Position numbers: made by a program. A DNA stretch of 64,000 nt from assembly GCA_002726235.1 (NCBI GenBank), contig PBSN01000007.1, forward strand, positions 62,001 to 126,000, given 5' to 3'. The DNA comes from Nitrospiraceae bacterium. GTDB lineage: Bacteria; Nitrospirota; Nitrospiria; Nitrospirales; UBA2166. Positions 18,001-24,000 of this stretch are shown piece after piece; positions within the stretch are counted from its first letter, which is position 1, and each line of letters begins with the position of its first letter.

Positions 18001-21000
18001 TGGTGAAAGAGTCCTCGGACGCCATAGCGACCCATGAGTACCGTTTCAAACACTGTAATCGGAAAGTTACGATCGATTTTCCCTTTCTGTGGAAGATATC
18101 CAATGCGCGCACGGTGATAGCATCGGAGATTTTCACATGCGCAGTCGAAGATCTGCATGGTCCCTGTTTGTGGGAGAACCAAGCCAAGAATGGCTCGCAG
18201 GATGGTCGTTTTTCCAGACCCGTTCGGTCCAATAATGCCCACGAATTCGCCTTCGTTGATGTTGAGGCTGACCTCTTCGAGAGCTGGCGTGTGTGAGAGG
18301 GTATAGGTGGCGTTCGAAAATGCTATGACGCGCCGTGGCTGTTCTTTTGCGCGATTCGTTAACATTGTATTGTACAGTGCTAGGTAGCTAGGGAAGGAGA
18401 ACGACTGGTGTGATCCTAAGGGGTCAACACTTCTGCGAGTTTTAAGACATTGAATTGTAGCATGCTGGTGTAGGTGTTGGTTCCTGGGAGAGCTCCTGGA
18501 GTGGCGGTTAGCGTGACTATGCGAGCGCCAGTTTCTTGTGCGAGGATTCGCGGAATTTTCTGATTGAGTTGGGGCTCCGACACGATGACTTTGATTCCTT
18601 CTTTTTTGATGTGCTGCGTCAAGGTGCTGAGATGTTTTGCAGATGGCTCTGTCCCAGGTTGCTCAATGATATTCCCAACGATCTTAAATCCGAACCGGCG
18701 GGCAAAGTATGGCCACGCAGGATGATGGGAGACGAAACGCCGATCCGAAAGTTTTTTGACGCGGCGTTTAATGTCAGTTTGCAGCGTGTCGAGTGTACGT
18801 AAGTACTCAGCCTGATTGGCCAGATAGTCGCGTTTATTTGAGTGATCAAGCTTGATAAGTCGGGTAGTAATTTGTCGAACTATGCTCTTTGCATTCTCGG
18901 GGTCAAGCCAGATGTGTGGGTTGCCCAACGCATGCCTCTTATGGTGCGTGTGCATTGTTCCAGTATTTCTCAGAAGAGAAATGCCTTTGGATGAGACCAC
19001 GACTTCGAGTGAATTGTTCTGTGCGCTTTTCACTAGCTGATTGGCCCAGACTTCGAGGCCAGCCCCAATCGTCACGAACATGTGAGCCTGACGAATCGCA
19101 AGGACATCGCTGGGTTTGAGTGCGTAACTGTGGCCATTTTCAAGTCCGCTAATCAGACTGGTCACGGTGACGTGTTCACGTCCGATTTGTTTGACGTAGT
19201 CTTTTAGGACAGTGAGGGTGGTGACAACAATTGTGGTGTTCGTTTTGGCGTCAACGTGGGAAATTACGCTGGTTAGCAGGAATCCTATAATCAGCGTATA
19301 GATCAAGGGTTTTGCCATGGAGAAGGACGCTATCACCCTAGTCGAGAGAAAGTCAACGTAGTGACTCGGGGGTTGTCGGAAAAGTGCGCAACGGTGTTCT
19401 CAGCTCATTGTCGTGCTCATGTATTCCGTGTACGTTCCGCGTGCCAACGACCCTCAGGTCTGCTGGATTGCCTTTTTGAACAGCCTTGTTTTCTCGTAAC
19501 ACTTGAGGAGTGGCAATTTTTGAATTATTCAGCTGAGCACTTGGGAAGGACAGATGTTTTTAGGTTCATCTGCATTGGTAATGGTCGTGCAACATTGACA
19601 GGAAGGGGCATCCTGCGTAAACTCCTAAATCCTATCGGGATAGAGTAATTTGCATGAAAGTATCAATCAAAGGGGAGTATGGCGTTATGGCCGTTCTGGA
19701 GTTGGCGCTCAATGGAAACCATGGACCGCTTCAGGTCAAGGTCATCGCGAAGAAACAGAATATTCCCCACCGTTTTCTGGAGCAGGTGATGAGTGCATTG
19801 AAACGCAATGGTTTGGTTCGTAGCATTCGAGGGGCACAGGGGGGGTATCTGCTCGCCAAATCGTCGGATGAAATCCTCCTTGGAGATATCATCGAAGCGA
19901 TTGAGGGTCCTGTCACTCCCATGCCGTGTGTGGGGAATGGAGCCGCGGGGACGTGTTGGCAAGAAACTGATCCGAAGTTGTGCGTGCTTCATGGTGTGTG
20001 GAGCGACGTGAAAGATTCAGTACTGAACGTGTTGAATGCGACGACTGTTCAGGATCTGTGCAATCGTATCCACGCGTTGAATGGTCAGCGTATTCTCATG
20101 TACCATATTTGATTTGCGGGTTTGCCCTTGGTTATTGGAGGTTCTGGTATGGATGTACAGCAACCCACGTTGAAGGTTCCTGTTCCGGACGCGATTTTAG
20201 CTGAGATTGCCGGTTTTGAAGCCGAAGCCGAGAAAGTGAAACGGGGTGAACTGTCTGATGATGTGTTCCGGCCCTTTCGTCTGCAACATGGCATTTATGG
20301 GCAACGACAGGCTGGCTATCAGATGATTCGAGTGAAGATTCCGTTTGGTGGCCTCACCTCGACCCAAATGCGTTGCTTGGCGGCGCTCGTTGAGGAGTAC
20401 AGTTCTGGCATTGGTCATGTAACCACTAGGCAAGACATCCAATTTCATTTTGTTCCGCTCGACATGGTGGGAACGGTGATGCTTCGGCTTGCTGAGGTTG
20501 ATCTCACTACCAGAGAAGCATGCGGCAATACGGTGCGTAATGTGACCGCCTGTCCGTTGGCAGGAGTGTGCCAGGAAGAAGCATTCGATGTCACTCCCTA
20601 TGCGCTCACGGTGTCACGTCATCTTATGCGTAATGCGCTGAACCAGAGTCTCCCAAGAAAATTTAAAATTGCGTTCTCAGGGTGTGCAACAATGGATTGC
20701 GCTAAGACGATGATTCACGATATTGGCCTCTCAGCTATCCAAAAAGGTGATGGAACTCGCGGATTTCGCATGGTGGTTGGTGGAGGTCTCGGGTCGGCAC
20801 CTCGTTTAGCGAAACTTTTTCGAGAGTTTCTTTCGGTTGAAGACCTGATTCCCATGTGTGAAGCTGTCGTTAAAGTTTTCGATAATCACGGTAATCGGAA
20901 AAATCGCACGAAAGCTCGGATGAAGTTTGTAGTGACAAAGTTGGGCATTGATGAGTTTTTCCGTCAGATCGAAGCCGAATATGACGCGATCAAACAGGAG

Positions 21001-24000
21001 AGAAACGGATCGAGAGGGTATGATTTTCTGTCATATGCCGATGAGCCCTTCGTGGCCGATGTTCCGTTTTCGGTGAATGGAGGTCCAGGCTCCGGCGCTT
21101 CTCACGCGAATGGAGACGCCTCGGATGCGTTCGAGCGTTGGAAAAAGACAAATGTTATCCCACAGCGACAGCCTGGGTATAGTGCGATCACGTTGAAGCT
21201 TCCAACTGGTGACATGACTCCAACTCAGATACGGTTTGTGGCGGACCTGATCGATACCGAAGCAAATGGTAATATTCGAACCACTATTGGACAGAATGTG
21301 TTGATTCGTTGGATTTCGACAGCACGATTGCCTGAGATATATCCTAAACTTATTGAAGCTGACCTTGCTGATTCAGGTGCTCATCTCGTTGAGGATATTG
21401 TGGCCTGTCCAGGAACCGATACCTGTGGTCTTGGCATTACCTCTTCGAAGGCCTTGGCCCGGGCTTTGAAGGAAGTATTTCCTGCAGGAAACACGGGGGA
21501 CGATTTGACGGGAATGTCGATCAAAATCAGTGGATGTCACAACTCCTGTGCCCAGCATCACATTGCGACCATCGGGCTCCATGGCGTGACCAAGCGCTAT
21601 GGGGATCACATCGCGCCATTCTATGAAATGCATCTCGGTGGTTCATCTGGTGGTGACGGAGCGCGTATTGGACAAATGACCATCAAGCTTCCGTCTAGAA
21701 ACGTTTCGAGAGCGATTACACATCTGGTGGGATTGTTTCGACAGGAACGTCAGAACGAGGAATCGTTCCCGCAGTATCTCGATCGTGCGGGCAAATCCAA
21801 ACTTAAACAGGCACTGATCCCGTATTCGATCATTGGCAACTTTGACGAGACACCTGAATACTTTTATGACTGGGAAGCGAAGTCTGAGTTCAGTATCGTT
21901 GATCTTGGTCCTGGGGAATGTGCGGGTGGCGCGTTAGAGATGATTACCGATGGGATTTTGGAAGCCGACCAAGAGTTGTATCAAGCAGAGACACTGGCCC
22001 AAAGTCAACAATATGCCATGACGGTTAATAAAGCCTATCGGGCTGTGTTGGCAGCAGCAAAAGCGTTGCTGGTGACTGAAGGGATCGAACCTGCGACCGA
22101 TCTGCAGACGTTTGGAGATTGTGAGGCGCGGTTGATTAAAACTGGCGTTCTTCCTGCAGAATTTTCGGAGCATCTTGCGATCATCAGGGCACTCAATGAT
22201 AGTGATAAGAAACCGACGGTCGCATTTGCCGAAGAAAAACTTCGAGTGGCAAAATTGTTTGTTGAGGCATGCCGTTCAGCCTTGGAAGGGATTGGTGAGG
22301 ATTTGAAGTTAACCAAGGGTGAAGACATGGGTGATATTGCCTCTGCTCCACCAGCACTGGATGTGGGTGACGATATCGCGCTACTGGATTTGCGTGGGGT
22401 GAAATGCCCGATCAACTATGTGAAAACGAAGCTTCGTTTAGAAATGATGGATTCGGGTGAACGCCTGGCTGTCTTTCTTGATGACGGAGAGCCAATTAGA
22501 AATGTGCCAGCAAGTCTAAAAAATGACGGTCATACTGTCCTATCGCAAGAACCTATTGACGAATATTTCAAACTGGTGGTGGAGAATGCTTAAAGAAATG
22601 GATGCACAAACAGTGAACACAAAAGAAGCGGAATACGATGCCCTCAATACCAAATCAGCGGAAGATGTTTTGCAGTGGGCCTCTGAGACGTTTAGCGATC
22701 GAGGTGCGCTTATGTCGAGTTTCGGGCTCGAGGATGTTGTCCTCATCGATATGATGGCCAAGATCAATCCCAAGGCACGTATCATTACCTTGGACACCGG
22801 GCGACTGAATCAAGAAACCTATGATGTGATGGATAAGATACGAGACAAGTACGGCGTCTCCATTGAGGTGATGTTTCCCGATGCGGAGAAGGTGCAAGCA
22901 ATGGTACGAACCAAAGGGATGAACTTGTTCTACCATTCTCTTGAGAACCGCAAGGAGTGTTGTCGGATACGGAAGGTTGATATTCTCAACCGTTCGCTTG
23001 CCGATTTGGATGCGTGGATTACCGGGTTGCGCCGTGCCCAGGTCGTGACGCGAACCGAGACCAAAAAAGTCGAGATTGATCATGATCGCGGAGGAATGGT
23101 CAAAATAAACCCCATTGCTGATTGGGCGGTGAATCAAGTCTGGGACTATATTAAAGCCAACCATGTTCCGTTCAATGTTTTGCATGAGCGAGGGTATCCA
23201 TCAATCGGATGTGCTCCCTGTACTCGTGCGATCTCGACTGGTGAGGATTTGCGGGCCGGGAGATGGTGGTGGGAGCTTCCGGAACATAAGGAATGTGGTC
23301 TTCACGTGCAATCGCCCTAACGAACTTTTCCGTATTGTATTTTAAAACAAAAGATAGTGTGCTTAGTGTCATTACATAAAAACGAGGTATGGACGTGGAA
23401 AATATGACGGCAGAAAATATGAAAATAGACAAATGGGAATCTCAGAATCATGGTGGAAGCCCAACGACCAATGAAAGCAAGAAATATGCAATTTTTGTTG
23501 GGCGCTATCAACCGTATCATCAGGGACATACCTCATTGATCATGCAAAAAATTAAGCAGGGAATTCCGGTATTAATCATGGTACGAGACATTGCTCCTGA
23601 TGCAAAAAATCCTTTTACAACAGAGCAAACGGTTGAGATGATTGAAAAATTTCATTCAGATCACGGCCATGACGTGAAGGTCATGATCATCCCTGATATT
23701 GAAAGCGTGAACTATGGGAGAGGCGTTGGATATGAAATCAATGAATTTACTCCGCCTGAAGACATTGGGTTTATCTCAGCAACAAAGATCAGACAATCCA
23801 TTAAAGATTCCAATGATGATTGGAGACTATTAGTTGATGAATCGATTCAGGCGGATGTAGAAAGGCACTTACTGGAAAGTGACGTAGAACTATAGAAATA
23901 AAAAAAATGTACGCTGTGCCTCTCGATGAGATCATCGCGAAGGTGAGCCAAGGCCCGCGAGCTTCGAAAGATCTTACGTGGGGTGAGGCGAAAGCTGTTA

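Follow-up and report, generated by a model that had tools for sequence, protein, structure and literature searches.

The locus examined here raises the question of how sulfur leaves a sirohaem reductase that carries a sulfur-carrier domain at its own C-terminus: as free sulfide, or bound to protein. The gene lies in a 64,000-nucleotide stretch of the genome of a Nitrospiraceae bacterium (contig PBSN01000007.1), hereafter the window. Its 814-residue product is made up, in order, of a reductase core, a cysteine loop, a HEPN-fold domain, a linker and a TusA domain (Table 1). A literature search for a fusion of sulfite reductase with TusA turned up no paper on it. We regard the fusion as an unstudied design, from which reduced sulfur may exit protein-bound rather than as free sulfide.

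The single 814-residue frame proposed in the earlier note was borne out by a translation without internal stops, and a GGAGG sequence lies 8 nt upstream of the ATG at 20149. A repeated Pfam search closely matched the figures given there for NIR_SIR, NIR_SIR_ferr, HEPN and TusA. The AF2 model of the whole protein has a mean pLDDT of 81.9 and a pTM of 0.77.

Table 1. Features of the reductase-TusA locus, in window positions.
Feature	Positions	Strand	Basis
Rrf2-family transcriptional regulator, 152 aa, three cysteines in C-terminal part	19654..20112	+	Pfam Rrf2 E 8e-38
Whole 814-aa ORF, stop codon included	20149..22593	+	translation without internal stops
Two-repeat sirohaem sulfite/nitrite reductase core, residues ~50-556	20296..21816	+	Pfam and fold match
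N-terminal-half motif C135-x5-C141 ... C179-x4-C184, second [4Fe-4S]-type	20551..20700	+	conservation
Catalytic-site motif C420-x5-C426 ... C463-x3-C467, sirohaem-coupled [4Fe-4S] ligands	21406..21549	+	invariance, alignment
Flexible loop GPGECAGG with invariant Cys591	21907..21930	+	conservation, low pLDDT
HEPN-fold helical domain, residues 596-713, non-catalytic	21934..22287	+	Pfam, Foldseek
Disordered linker (predicted), residues 714-744	22288..22380	+	pLDDT, low identity
TusA domain, residues 745-812; Cys753 codon 22405-22407 in LRGVKCP	22381..22584	+	Pfam, fold
cysH, thioredoxin-dependent APS reductase type	22586..23320	+	NCBIfam, Pfam PAPS_reduct family E 4.8e-47

The reductase core and its operon

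The core contains tandem NIR_SIR_ferr and NIR_SIR repeats in one chain, each family matching in two stretches (E 2.4e-35 and 5.8e-56, respectively). Its top fold match is Mycobacterium tuberculosis NirA (1zj8; E 5e-34, TM 0.78), followed by plant nitrite and sulfite reductases and then E. coli SiRHP (3b0g, 5h8v, 1aop). The previous description, of a monomeric two-repeat sirohaem enzyme that is a sulfite reductase in type and shares an operon with cysH, is supported. None of the named NCBIfam equivalogs reached its cut-off: the NirA family (NF007126) scored 273.7 against 523, while ferredoxin-nitrite reductase (NF007125), CysI (NF010029/TIGR02041) and ferredoxin-sulfite reductase (TIGR02042) scored 226.1/594, 184.1/457, 131.9/756 and 129.4/731. 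By these sequence scores, the protein is a separate subfamily from the equivalogs.

The four cysteines of the catalytic-site motif are invariant in 49/49 family members and 54/54 sequences, and this C-terminal-half CX5C...CX3C coincides in alignment with the cysteines of the tobacco nitrite reductase cluster. Equally invariant in the 54 sequences are the basic, anion-binding residues R94, R130, K171 and K173 of the N-terminal half, which we take to be the counterparts of the E. coli anion-binding residues. The N-terminal-half cysteine motif is kept in 43-46 of the 49 family members; among 120 close homologues, CX5C occurs in 120, CX3C in 111 and CX4C in 8. Among PDB sequences it is matched best by a cluster motif of Fsr that is functional, and it is absent from tobacco nitrite reductase and M. 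tuberculosis NirA in the comparison. Judged from the alignment, this second canonical CX5C...CX3C motif stands out as a feature that sets the protein apart from textbook assimilatory enzymes.

The downstream gene had been called a PAPS reductase, but its product scores as an APS reductase (TIGR02055, 273.1 bits, cut-off 235.3; NF002537, 283 bits, cut-off 154) and carries the CC...CxxC cysteines. Because its ATG at 22586 overlaps the reductase stop codon, cysH is translationally coupled to the reductase. Upstream, the Rrf2 product scored 119.7 bits with the CymR-like NCBIfam model, under the cut-off of 195; of 24 related loci, drawn from several phyla, 6 have an Rrf2 gene next to that of the reductase, and a site at 19595-19623 is promoter-like by consensus match only. 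The reductase is probably co-transcribed with cysH, and the Rrf2 regulator likely controls this operon.

Genome context bears on the substrate. The 24 related loci scanned contain cysH, ATP sulfurylase, sirohaem-synthesis, TauE and Rrf2 genes. Elsewhere in this 90.65%-complete genome, nitrite reduction is covered by a 1007-residue NirB-NirD-type protein encoded beside a molybdopterin oxidoreductase gene, there are genes for CysK/M, ATP sulfurylase and Aminotran_5, and no further NIR_SIR protein was found. With the genes for CysK, ATP sulfurylase and the NAD(P)H-type nitrite reductase thus lying elsewhere, the 814-residue protein is the only sulfite-reductase candidate found. We infer that the product is the sirohaem-[4Fe-4S] enzyme with which this organism reduces sulfite for assimilation, sulfite rather than nitrite being its substrate.

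The C-terminal extension, its distribution and its losses

Cys591 is present in 48/49 family members, 120/120 close homologues and 30/30 sequences of a further set. It lies in a loop (residues 585-595) with pLDDT below 50 in the AF2 model, and the sequence of the GxGECAG tail region has no match among solved chains. In core-only relatives the chain terminates at GECAA or GECAV, making the cysteine loop the extreme C-terminus.

The following segment had been described as a helical linker in which HEPN scored weakly. It is helical, but more than a linker: Pfam HEPN matches residues 605-702 (E 3.2e-5, 24.5 bits against a cut-off of 22), a separate model of residues 578-722 reaches pLDDT 86.4, and the top four Foldseek matches (2hsb, 1ufb, 1o3u, 1wol; TM 0.73-0.80) are all HEPN proteins, 2hsb at E 6e-4 and TM 0.80, revealing a genuine four/five-helix HEPN fold. 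In 30 sequences, neither a conserved Rx4-6H RNase motif nor any invariant or nearly invariant residue was found in this domain. The linker beyond it has pLDDT below 50 at residues 716-740 and only 11-26% identity to relatives.

The complete TusA domain claimed earlier was upheld by Pfam (residues 746-812, E 1e-17, 64.2 bits against a gathering cut-off of 28.6) and by its two-layer alpha/beta fold, which matches E. coli YhhP/TusA (1dcj, TM 0.83; 3lvj_C, TM 0.84), with a Cys-Pro motif at 753. Conservation of LRGVKCP, left unchecked in the earlier note, proved high: the cysteine is retained in 119/120 full-length close homologues, 14/15 TusA-bearing loci and 17/20 sampled Nitrospinota ends. TusA is the best-conserved module of the protein, at 52-67% identity across phyla versus 42-60% for the catalytic core. 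The NCBIfam equivalogs TusA (NF001423, 15.9 bits, cut-off 78) and YedF (NF008242, 34.6, cut-off 79) are not reached; the domain falls into a distinct subtype, GV.CP.N[YF]VKTKL, whose nearest free-standing relative (52% identity) is encoded by a TusA gene adjoining rsmI in Nitrospirales. The same subtype is also joined to Prok-JAB and to IscU-like NifU_N, other sulfur-handling modules.

Distribution was assessed in 201 sampled Nitrospirota genomes, whose family numbers differ from those used before; the reductase was matched in 40/40 Nitrospirales. It runs in one frame to residue 805-813 in 37 of these and is fragmented or truncated at contig ends in the other three; the in-frame TGA of one of the 37 (G165) falls within the HEPN domain, where the frame is locally shifted, and not at a cysteine. 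Matches were also found in 3/3 genomes from other orders of the same class and in families f9 (7/7), f13 (11/11) and f12 (1/1). Family f10 gave 2/44, one full length and one core only; the 22/28 matches in f14 were weak and to a different paralogue of ~555 residues; the remaining families of the sample gave none. The pattern reported earlier, a fusion in all Nitrospirales and several other Nitrospirota families, thus reappears. The fusion is not restricted to Nitrospirota: it is common in Nitrospinota, where 85 genomes have the gene and 74 of them reach the TusA end, and one Pseudomonadota MAG has it as well. Across phyla the architectures are nested (core only; core and HEPN; core, HEPN and TusA); outside these phyla, reductases extended by HEPN but lacking TusA occur widely, and most phyla with the reductase family have neither the TusA domain nor a tusA gene within 5 kb.

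TusA has also been lost. Two Nitrospinaceae forms (L010, L012) without it are nested among TusA-bearing relatives, and L015 lacks it while its sister L020, with the same gene neighbourhood, has it. In 8 of the 85 Nitrospinota genomes the protein ends at residue 704-709, inside contigs. The cysteine is replaced by Ser, Gly or Tyr in 3/20 sampled Nitrospinota ends and in L008, and by Gly in 1/120 Nitrospira-type homologues; in the Nitrospina genomes with Ser or Gly, the TusA domain is still well conserved. Deletion or cysteine replacement in several Nitrospinota lineages indicates that TusA is an accessory part, and weakens the case for a persulfide hand-off as an essential step.

The fate of the reduced sulfur

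The best reading, which we hold tentatively and at a little less than an even chance, is that product sulfur is handed to TusA as a persulfide. CysH would produce sulfite from APS, and the core would reduce it at the canonical site, composed of C420, C426, C463 and C467 together with the N-half Arg and Lys residues. The C-terminal extension would serve as a tethered acceptor, the HEPN-fold spacer and the ~30-residue disordered linker holding TusA, and the reduced sulfur would be taken up as a persulfide on Cys753 at or near the product exit. TusA could then pass it to sulfur relays, Fe-S or thio-cofactor synthesis, or cysteine synthase, with less free sulfide or S0 released; this step would be an accessory branch outside catalysis. 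What the analysis shows are the folds and identities of the domains, the conserved cysteines, the operon setting and the taxonomic pattern with its secondary losses; contact between TusA and the active site, the electron donor, persulfide formation and the acceptors are all points that we infer.

In the classical view, assimilatory enzymes release sulfide, and sulfide forms no persulfide without an oxidant, which counts against the hand-off, as do the TusA losses, the many phyla whose reductase has neither TusA nor a nearby tusA, and the low confidence of the linker and cysteine loop in the AF2 model. Counting for it are the fusions of this TusA subtype to Prok-JAB and NifU_N, the completeness of the domain with its retained cysteine, and the conservation of TusA above that of the core. 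The hand-off is consistent with this conservation and with a 2026 report of S0 as the direct product of purified assimilatory sulfite reductases (PMC13188885); S0 is the oxidation state that a TusA persulfide needs, so its release also counts in favor.

The persistence of a well-conserved TusA domain in Nitrospina genomes with Ser or Gly at its cysteine suggests another role, in which the HEPN-TusA tail would be a regulatory or docking module that carries no pathway sulfur. It would sense persulfide, sulfide or redox state and tune the enzyme, or act as an adaptor or dimerisation unit, recruiting cysteine synthase, a desulfurase or ferredoxin, in part independently of the cysteine. TusA being the most conserved module is what an interaction surface would lead one to expect, the wide occurrence of HEPN without TusA argues that the tail is functional in its own right, and HEPN domains often dimerise. 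We nevertheless consider this role unlikely, given the retention of the cysteine in nearly all carriers (119/120; 17/20), the fusion of the subtype to sulfur-relay modules, and the lack of a conserved partner in the neighbourhood of the 24 loci scanned.

Sulfur could also flow the other way, the TusA cysteine bringing oxidised or sulfane sulfur into the reductase. The cargo could be a Cys-S-sulfonate or thiosulfonate from thiosulfate or the CysH reaction, or a persulfide for reduction, and the fusion would either channel sulfite or let the cell draw on more sulfur sources. TusA-family proteins act on thiosulfate, the TusA part of the model finds a match in YeeD/TsuB, a component of the complex for thiosulfate uptake (8j4c), M. 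cuprina TusA makes Cys-S-thiosulfonates (PMC4175335), and the translational coupling of cysH fits as well. Such delivery is improbable, however: no thiosulfate transporter or rhodanese adjoins the gene in the window or the 24 loci scanned, Fsr, with an assimilatory-type site, did not accept thiosulfate (PMC10229431), and the TusA losses speak against any essential role.

A bolder analogy, which we hold to be doubtful, would make this family an assimilatory, one-polypeptide counterpart of DsrAB-DsrC. With a cluster motif in both halves, the Cys591 tail would take sulfur at the sirohaem and hand it to TusA Cys753 in nitrite oxidisers (Nitrospirota, Nitrospinota); the GxGECAG cysteine could reach the sirohaem like the DsrC arm, accepting the sulfur once four electrons have brought it to S0. 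If so, sulfate assimilation would physiologically yield a persulfide on protein instead of free sulfide.

That the enzyme is instead an assimilatory nitrite reductase (NirA), with TusA unrelated to its product, is very improbable: its top PDB sequence matches are plant nitrite reductases (E 4e-50) and the NCBIfam models that score highest, for the NirA family and for ferredoxin-nitrite reductase, each stay far below the cut-off, but cysH is operon-coupled, related loci have sulfur-assimilation neighbours, a separate NirBD type lies next to a molybdopterin oxidoreductase, this protein is the genome's only NIR_SIR candidate for sulfite reduction, and the closest fold, with the EAC cysteine in common, is M. 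tuberculosis NirA, which we take to be a sulfite reductase.

Relation to known systems

M. tuberculosis NirA (SirA, 1zj8) is likewise a monomeric two-repeat sirohaem-[4Fe-4S] reductase; its gene is linked to cysH, as here, and the shared EAC cysteine lies at the C125 position of the 814-residue protein. NirA differs in its ~25% identity, in lacking counterparts of C135, C141, C179 and C184, and in having neither a HEPN nor a TusA domain. Maize SiR (5h8v), tobacco NiR (3b0g) and E. coli CysI (1aop) share the fold and the C-half CX5C...CX3C, but plant and bacterial assimilatory enzymes have no such C-terminal extension and, by our alignment and PMC10229431, have lost the N-half cluster motif kept here.

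E. coli TusA (with IscS) and YeeD/TsuB have the fold and CP cysteine motif in common with the fused TusA, which differs from E. coli TusA and YedF as a distinct subtype under both equivalog cut-offs. Cupriavidus SQR-rhodanese (PMC11094781) also joins a sulfur-redox enzyme to a sulfur transferase that takes its product and so counts as a precedent for the reductase-TusA hand-off, although the enzyme and the transferase fold are different and the pathway is oxidative.

The protein gave no Pfam match to DsrC at E <= 0.01, and has, in place of a DsrC/TusE fold with two arm cysteines, the single invariant Cys591 on a flexible loop or tail, which by analogy recalls DsrC. DsrAB-DsrC, as described in PMC10229431, pairs a sirohaem sulfite reductase having cluster motifs in both pseudo-halves with a cysteine carrier on a flexible arm, the sulfur exiting protein-bound; the 814-residue protein has an assimilatory-type CX5C...CX3C cluster motif and an assimilatory context, and its carrier is a TusA domain covalently fused to the enzyme.

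Architecture and operon of the reductase

The reductase is encoded in a single open frame, with GGAGG 8 nt upstream of its ATG, and combines three modules whose positions are collected in the table. The earlier note had described a two-repeat sirohaem sulfite/nitrite reductase spanning residues 50-556, and this is borne out by the Pfam repeats and by fold matches. In an AlphaFold2 model computed from an alignment of 54 relatives (mean pLDDT 81.9, pTM 0.77; low-confidence stretches at residues 304-322, 585-595 and 716-740), the nearest fold to the core found by Foldseek was Mycobacterium tuberculosis NirA (1zj8, E 5e-34, TM 0.78), followed by plant nitrite and sulfite reductases and Escherichia coli SiRHP, while the C-terminal end matched E. 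coli TusA/YhhP (TM 0.83-0.84) and YeeD. The region between them had been taken for a helical linker with a weak HEPN match; its Pfam score is indeed marginal, but it is not a mere linker. When this domain was modelled alone (pLDDT 86.4), its best four Foldseek matches (2hsb, E 6e-4, TM 0.80; 1ufb; 1o3u; 1wol) were all HEPN-domain proteins, and the HEPN call is therefore considered real. No conserved residue was found inside the domain across 30 sequences, so that the Rx4-6H nuclease motif is absent; our reading is that the domain serves for spacing or oligomerisation.

Positions of features of the reductase, its neighbours and related genes of the same genome
Feature	Position	Strand	Remarks
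Reductase ORF	window 20149..22593	+	814 aa
NIR_SIR_ferr/NIR_SIR, two repeats	reductase residues ~50-556		Pfam
C135-x5-C141...C179-x4-C184	window 20551-20700, residues 135-184		full cluster motif
G-x-G-E-C-A-G loop with Cys591	window 21907-21930, residues 587-594		closes the core
HEPN	reductase residues 605-702		Pfam, marginal (24.5 bits, cut-off 22)
TusA	reductase residues 746-812		Pfam, clear (E 1e-17)
Rrf2-family regulator	window 19654..20112		upstream of reductase
Nucleotidyltransferase (NMNAT-like, weak), TrpD-like glycosyl transferase family 3, DUF420 membrane protein, radical-SAM protein (PA0069/Rv2578c kind)	window 23389-26690	+	past cysH
NirB+NirD-type nitrite reductase	L065:4363-7386, contig C14	-	1007 aa, one chain (Pyr_redox_2, BFD, NIR_SIR, Rieske_2)
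Nearest free-standing TusA	L066:5814-6089	-	52% identical to fused domain
DsrE2-family gene, then directly a third TusA gene	L067:5012-5833, contig C2	+	sulfur-trafficking pair, nitrite-oxidiser-type genome

Downstream lies cysH, whose start codon (most likely the ATG at 22586) overlaps the stop of the reductase. The operon claimed in the earlier note thus stands, but not the name of its second gene: CysH passes the NCBIfam APS-reductase model (273 bits against a cut-off of 235) and contains the CC...CxxC cysteines, making APS reductase a better name than PAPS reductase. The ZnuABC genes are found farther upstream on the opposite strand, and none of the same-strand genes past cysH at window positions 23389-26690 is sulfur-related.

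Two alignments (49/49 and 54/54 sequences) show no variation at the catalytic cysteines C420, C426, C463 and C467, and the larger one shows none at R94, R130, K171 and K173 of the N-terminal half. The protein does not reach the cut-off of any named NCBIfam equivalog (NirA family, ferredoxin-nitrite reductase, CysI, ferredoxin-sulfite reductase) and therefore forms a subfamily of its own. At related loci its neighbours are cysH, ATP sulfurylase, AprAB-like genes, sirohaem-synthesis genes, TauE and Rrf2. Apart from the reductase, a single NIR_SIR protein is encoded in the genome (1.87 Mb, 90.65% complete); it is of the NirB-NirD type, and next to its gene lie those for a DmsC/Fer4 protein and a molybdopterin oxidoreductase. 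The coupling to cysH, the sulfur-assimilation neighbours at related loci and this separate NirB-NirD-type protein point to sulfite as the substrate; that the enzyme is a nitrite reductase is very improbable. Elsewhere the genome encodes CysK/M, a second CysM-like protein, ATP sulfurylase and Aminotran_5 proteins, so the ordinary cysteine route is complete and TusA is added on top of it.

Two gene arrangements in other organisms were also observed. In two Nitrospirota MAGs (L015:2517-4776 and L020:2782-4923), the reductase is flanked by an AprA-like flavoprotein with a small 2x[4Fe-4S] protein and by ATP sulfurylase, and CysH is missing; this is a dissimilatory-type APS reductase within a seemingly assimilatory cluster. 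In an Elusimicrobiota MAG (L036:4003-4837), a Prok-JAB (Mec-like) gene and a ferredoxin gene precede a core-only reductase, an order that may point to some connection with a thiocarboxylate carrier route.

Distribution of the fusion and conservation of TusA

A scan at one genome per species yielded 58 related loci, which fall into three nested architectures: the core only (~590-620 aa; Elusimicrobiota, Chloroflexota); core and HEPN (~690-777 aa; Acidobacteriota, Myxococcota, Binatota and delta-type MAGs, Sedimenticola, Bacteroidota, some Nitrospinota and Nitrospirota); and core, HEPN and TusA (Nitrospirota, Nitrospinota, one Pseudomonadota MAG). The earlier assertion that the full form is conserved in all Nitrospirales and several other Nitrospirota families was confirmed in a sample of 201 Nitrospirota genomes, where it occurs in 40/40 of the same order (37 in one frame), 3/3 others of the same class, and families f9 (7/7), f13 (11/11), f12 (1/1) and f10 (1/44); the remaining families have none or a distant paralogue only. 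The gene is present in 85 of 101 sampled Nitrospinota genomes, running to the TusA end in one frame in 65 and in pieces in 9, ending at residue 704-709 inside contigs in 8, and cut by contig ends in 3. Homologues are named in databases "sulfite reductase (ferredoxin)", "sulfurtransferase TusA family protein" or "HEPN domain-containing protein".

The backbone of a quick IQ-TREE core tree lacks resolution, so the order of domain gains is given only by the nested architectures and by supported local losses. The TusA-less L010 and L012 are nested in TusA-bearing Nitrospinaceae (support 100) and look like internal deletions that retained the linker and the last residues; TusA-less L015 is the sister of TusA-bearing L020 and shares its gene neighbourhood. 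The core tree groups the Pseudomonadota MAG L041 with TusA-less gammaproteobacterial forms. An independent gain of TusA there finds no support: its TusA is 26-30% identical to other fused TusAs versus 15-16% to those of its own genome. A search for split forms among shorter homologues (214 matches) revealed no convincing free-standing HEPN-TusA gene, the seven sequences fetched being fragments or gene calls starting at an internal conserved Met, and no tusA was found within 5 kb of TusA-less reductase loci. The in-frame TGA of one Nitrospirales genome (L095, G165:C1), near query residue 681, lies in a short out-of-frame patch inside HEPN, which probably reflects a recent lesion or an error of sequencing or assembly. 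Selenocysteine was dismissed, given this frameshift and given that the "TGA" of genome G197 is a true stop following GECAA.

By identity to the query, TusA is the most conserved module (67% in Nitrospira-type, 53% in other Nitrospirota and 58% in Nitrospinota sequences, against 60%, 44% and 42% for the core and 55%, 18% and 28% for HEPN). Its active-site cysteine, whose conservation the earlier note had left to be checked, is kept in 119/120 close homologues, 14/15 TusA-bearing loci and 17/20 sampled Nitrospinota ends. The domain has nonetheless been lost several times, and the cysteine is replaced by Gly (L073, G205) or Ser (L074, G214; L008, G202) in Nitrospina genomes, by Tyr in L092 (G268) and by Gly in homologue P0039. 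These repeated losses and replacements indicate that TusA is accessory, not catalytic.

The fused subtype bears the signature GV.CP.N[YF]VKTKL. Free-standing TusAs (L066, L068-L072) are 52-61% identical to it and form a convergent pair with rsmI (16S rRNA C1402 methyltransferase) in the window's genome and in 5/5 other Nitrospirales genomes checked, whereas the DsrE2-linked TusA of the window's genome is only 24% identical. In that genome the nearest free-standing TusA also adjoins moaC, moaDE and moaA; a tie of the fused TusA to molybdenum-cofactor synthesis was rejected because moa genes accompany the free-standing TusA in 0/5 of the other genomes. Fusions of this subtype to Prok-JAB, IscU-like NifU_N or leucine-rich repeats occur in other metagenomic proteins (P0297, P0357, P0362, P0266), and the fusions to Prok-JAB and NifU_N fit a sulfur-relay role.

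Fate of the reduced sulfur

The best-supported reading, which we hold tentatively at a little short of an even chance, is product capture: the tethered TusA would accept the reduced sulfur, with Cys753 as the persulfide-bearing residue, and then hand it on. A 2026 study reports S0 as the direct product released by four assimilatory sulfite reductases, and the use of persulfide by cysteine synthases (PMC13188885), which makes product capture chemically plausible; the enzymes described there lie outside this subfamily, and TusA occurs 0 times in that text. A regulatory or docking role of the HEPN-TusA tail, partly independent of the cysteine, is unlikely; in its favour, the remainder of the TusA domain is still conserved in the Gly and Ser variants (L073, L074, L008), as it also is in the Tyr variant L092. 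Delivery of substrate, with thiosulfonate or persulfide carried in by TusA, appears quite improbable.

Product capture could also involve the loop that closes the core. Its Cys591 is kept in 48/49, 120/120 and 30/30 sequences of three sets, the loop is predicted to be flexible, and no sequence counterpart was found in solved structures. Core-only relatives stop directly past it (...GECAA-stop), placing it at their extreme C-terminus. That Cys591 acts as a built-in DsrC-like arm, taking S0 from the sirohaem and passing it on to TusA, is a speculative proposal to which we give little weight.

The second cluster motif and comparison with known enzymes

The four cysteines of the N-terminal-half motif are each kept in 43-46 of 49 family members, and among 120 close homologues CX5C is found in all 120, with a canonical CX3C in 111 and CX4C in 8. 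The best PDB match of this segment is the functional sirohaem-cluster motif of F420-dependent sulfite reductase (Fsr). On our reading of the alignment, the basic residues of the C-terminal half required for a second catalytic site are not conserved; the motif therefore more likely holds a second plain cluster than a second active site. Its loss in four members (L034, L036, L037, L039) is secondary.

In soils, wastewater and the ocean, nitrite is oxidised mainly by Nitrospirales and Nitrospinota, and the enzyme is universal in the sampled Nitrospirales and common in Nitrospinota. If product capture is true, sulfate assimilation would be tied directly to sulfur relays. The family offers a tractable test system: a single polypeptide with two cysteines open to mutation, for which naturally occurring variants without TusA or without its cysteine can serve as controls. 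Full-text literature searches, covering the main texts of papers, found no published description of the tail cysteine, the HEPN extension or the joining of the reductase to TusA; in the accessible text of a Nitrospinota comparative-genomics paper, Sir and TusA are listed separately and the fusion is not noted.

The tobacco nitrite reductase has none of the four N-terminal-half cysteines of this enzyme, and in M. tuberculosis NirA the EAC cysteine is the only one in that region. Assimilatory sulfite reductases of the textbook kind give off sulfide and retain only one of two ancestral cofactor sites. In the published view (PMC10229431), one sirohaem-[4Fe-4S] site has disappeared from assimilatory enzymes, together with the motif of their N-terminal half. 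Unlike the textbook enzymes, the reductase described here combines a covalent link to a persulfide carrier with a retained second cluster motif and an invariant tail cysteine.
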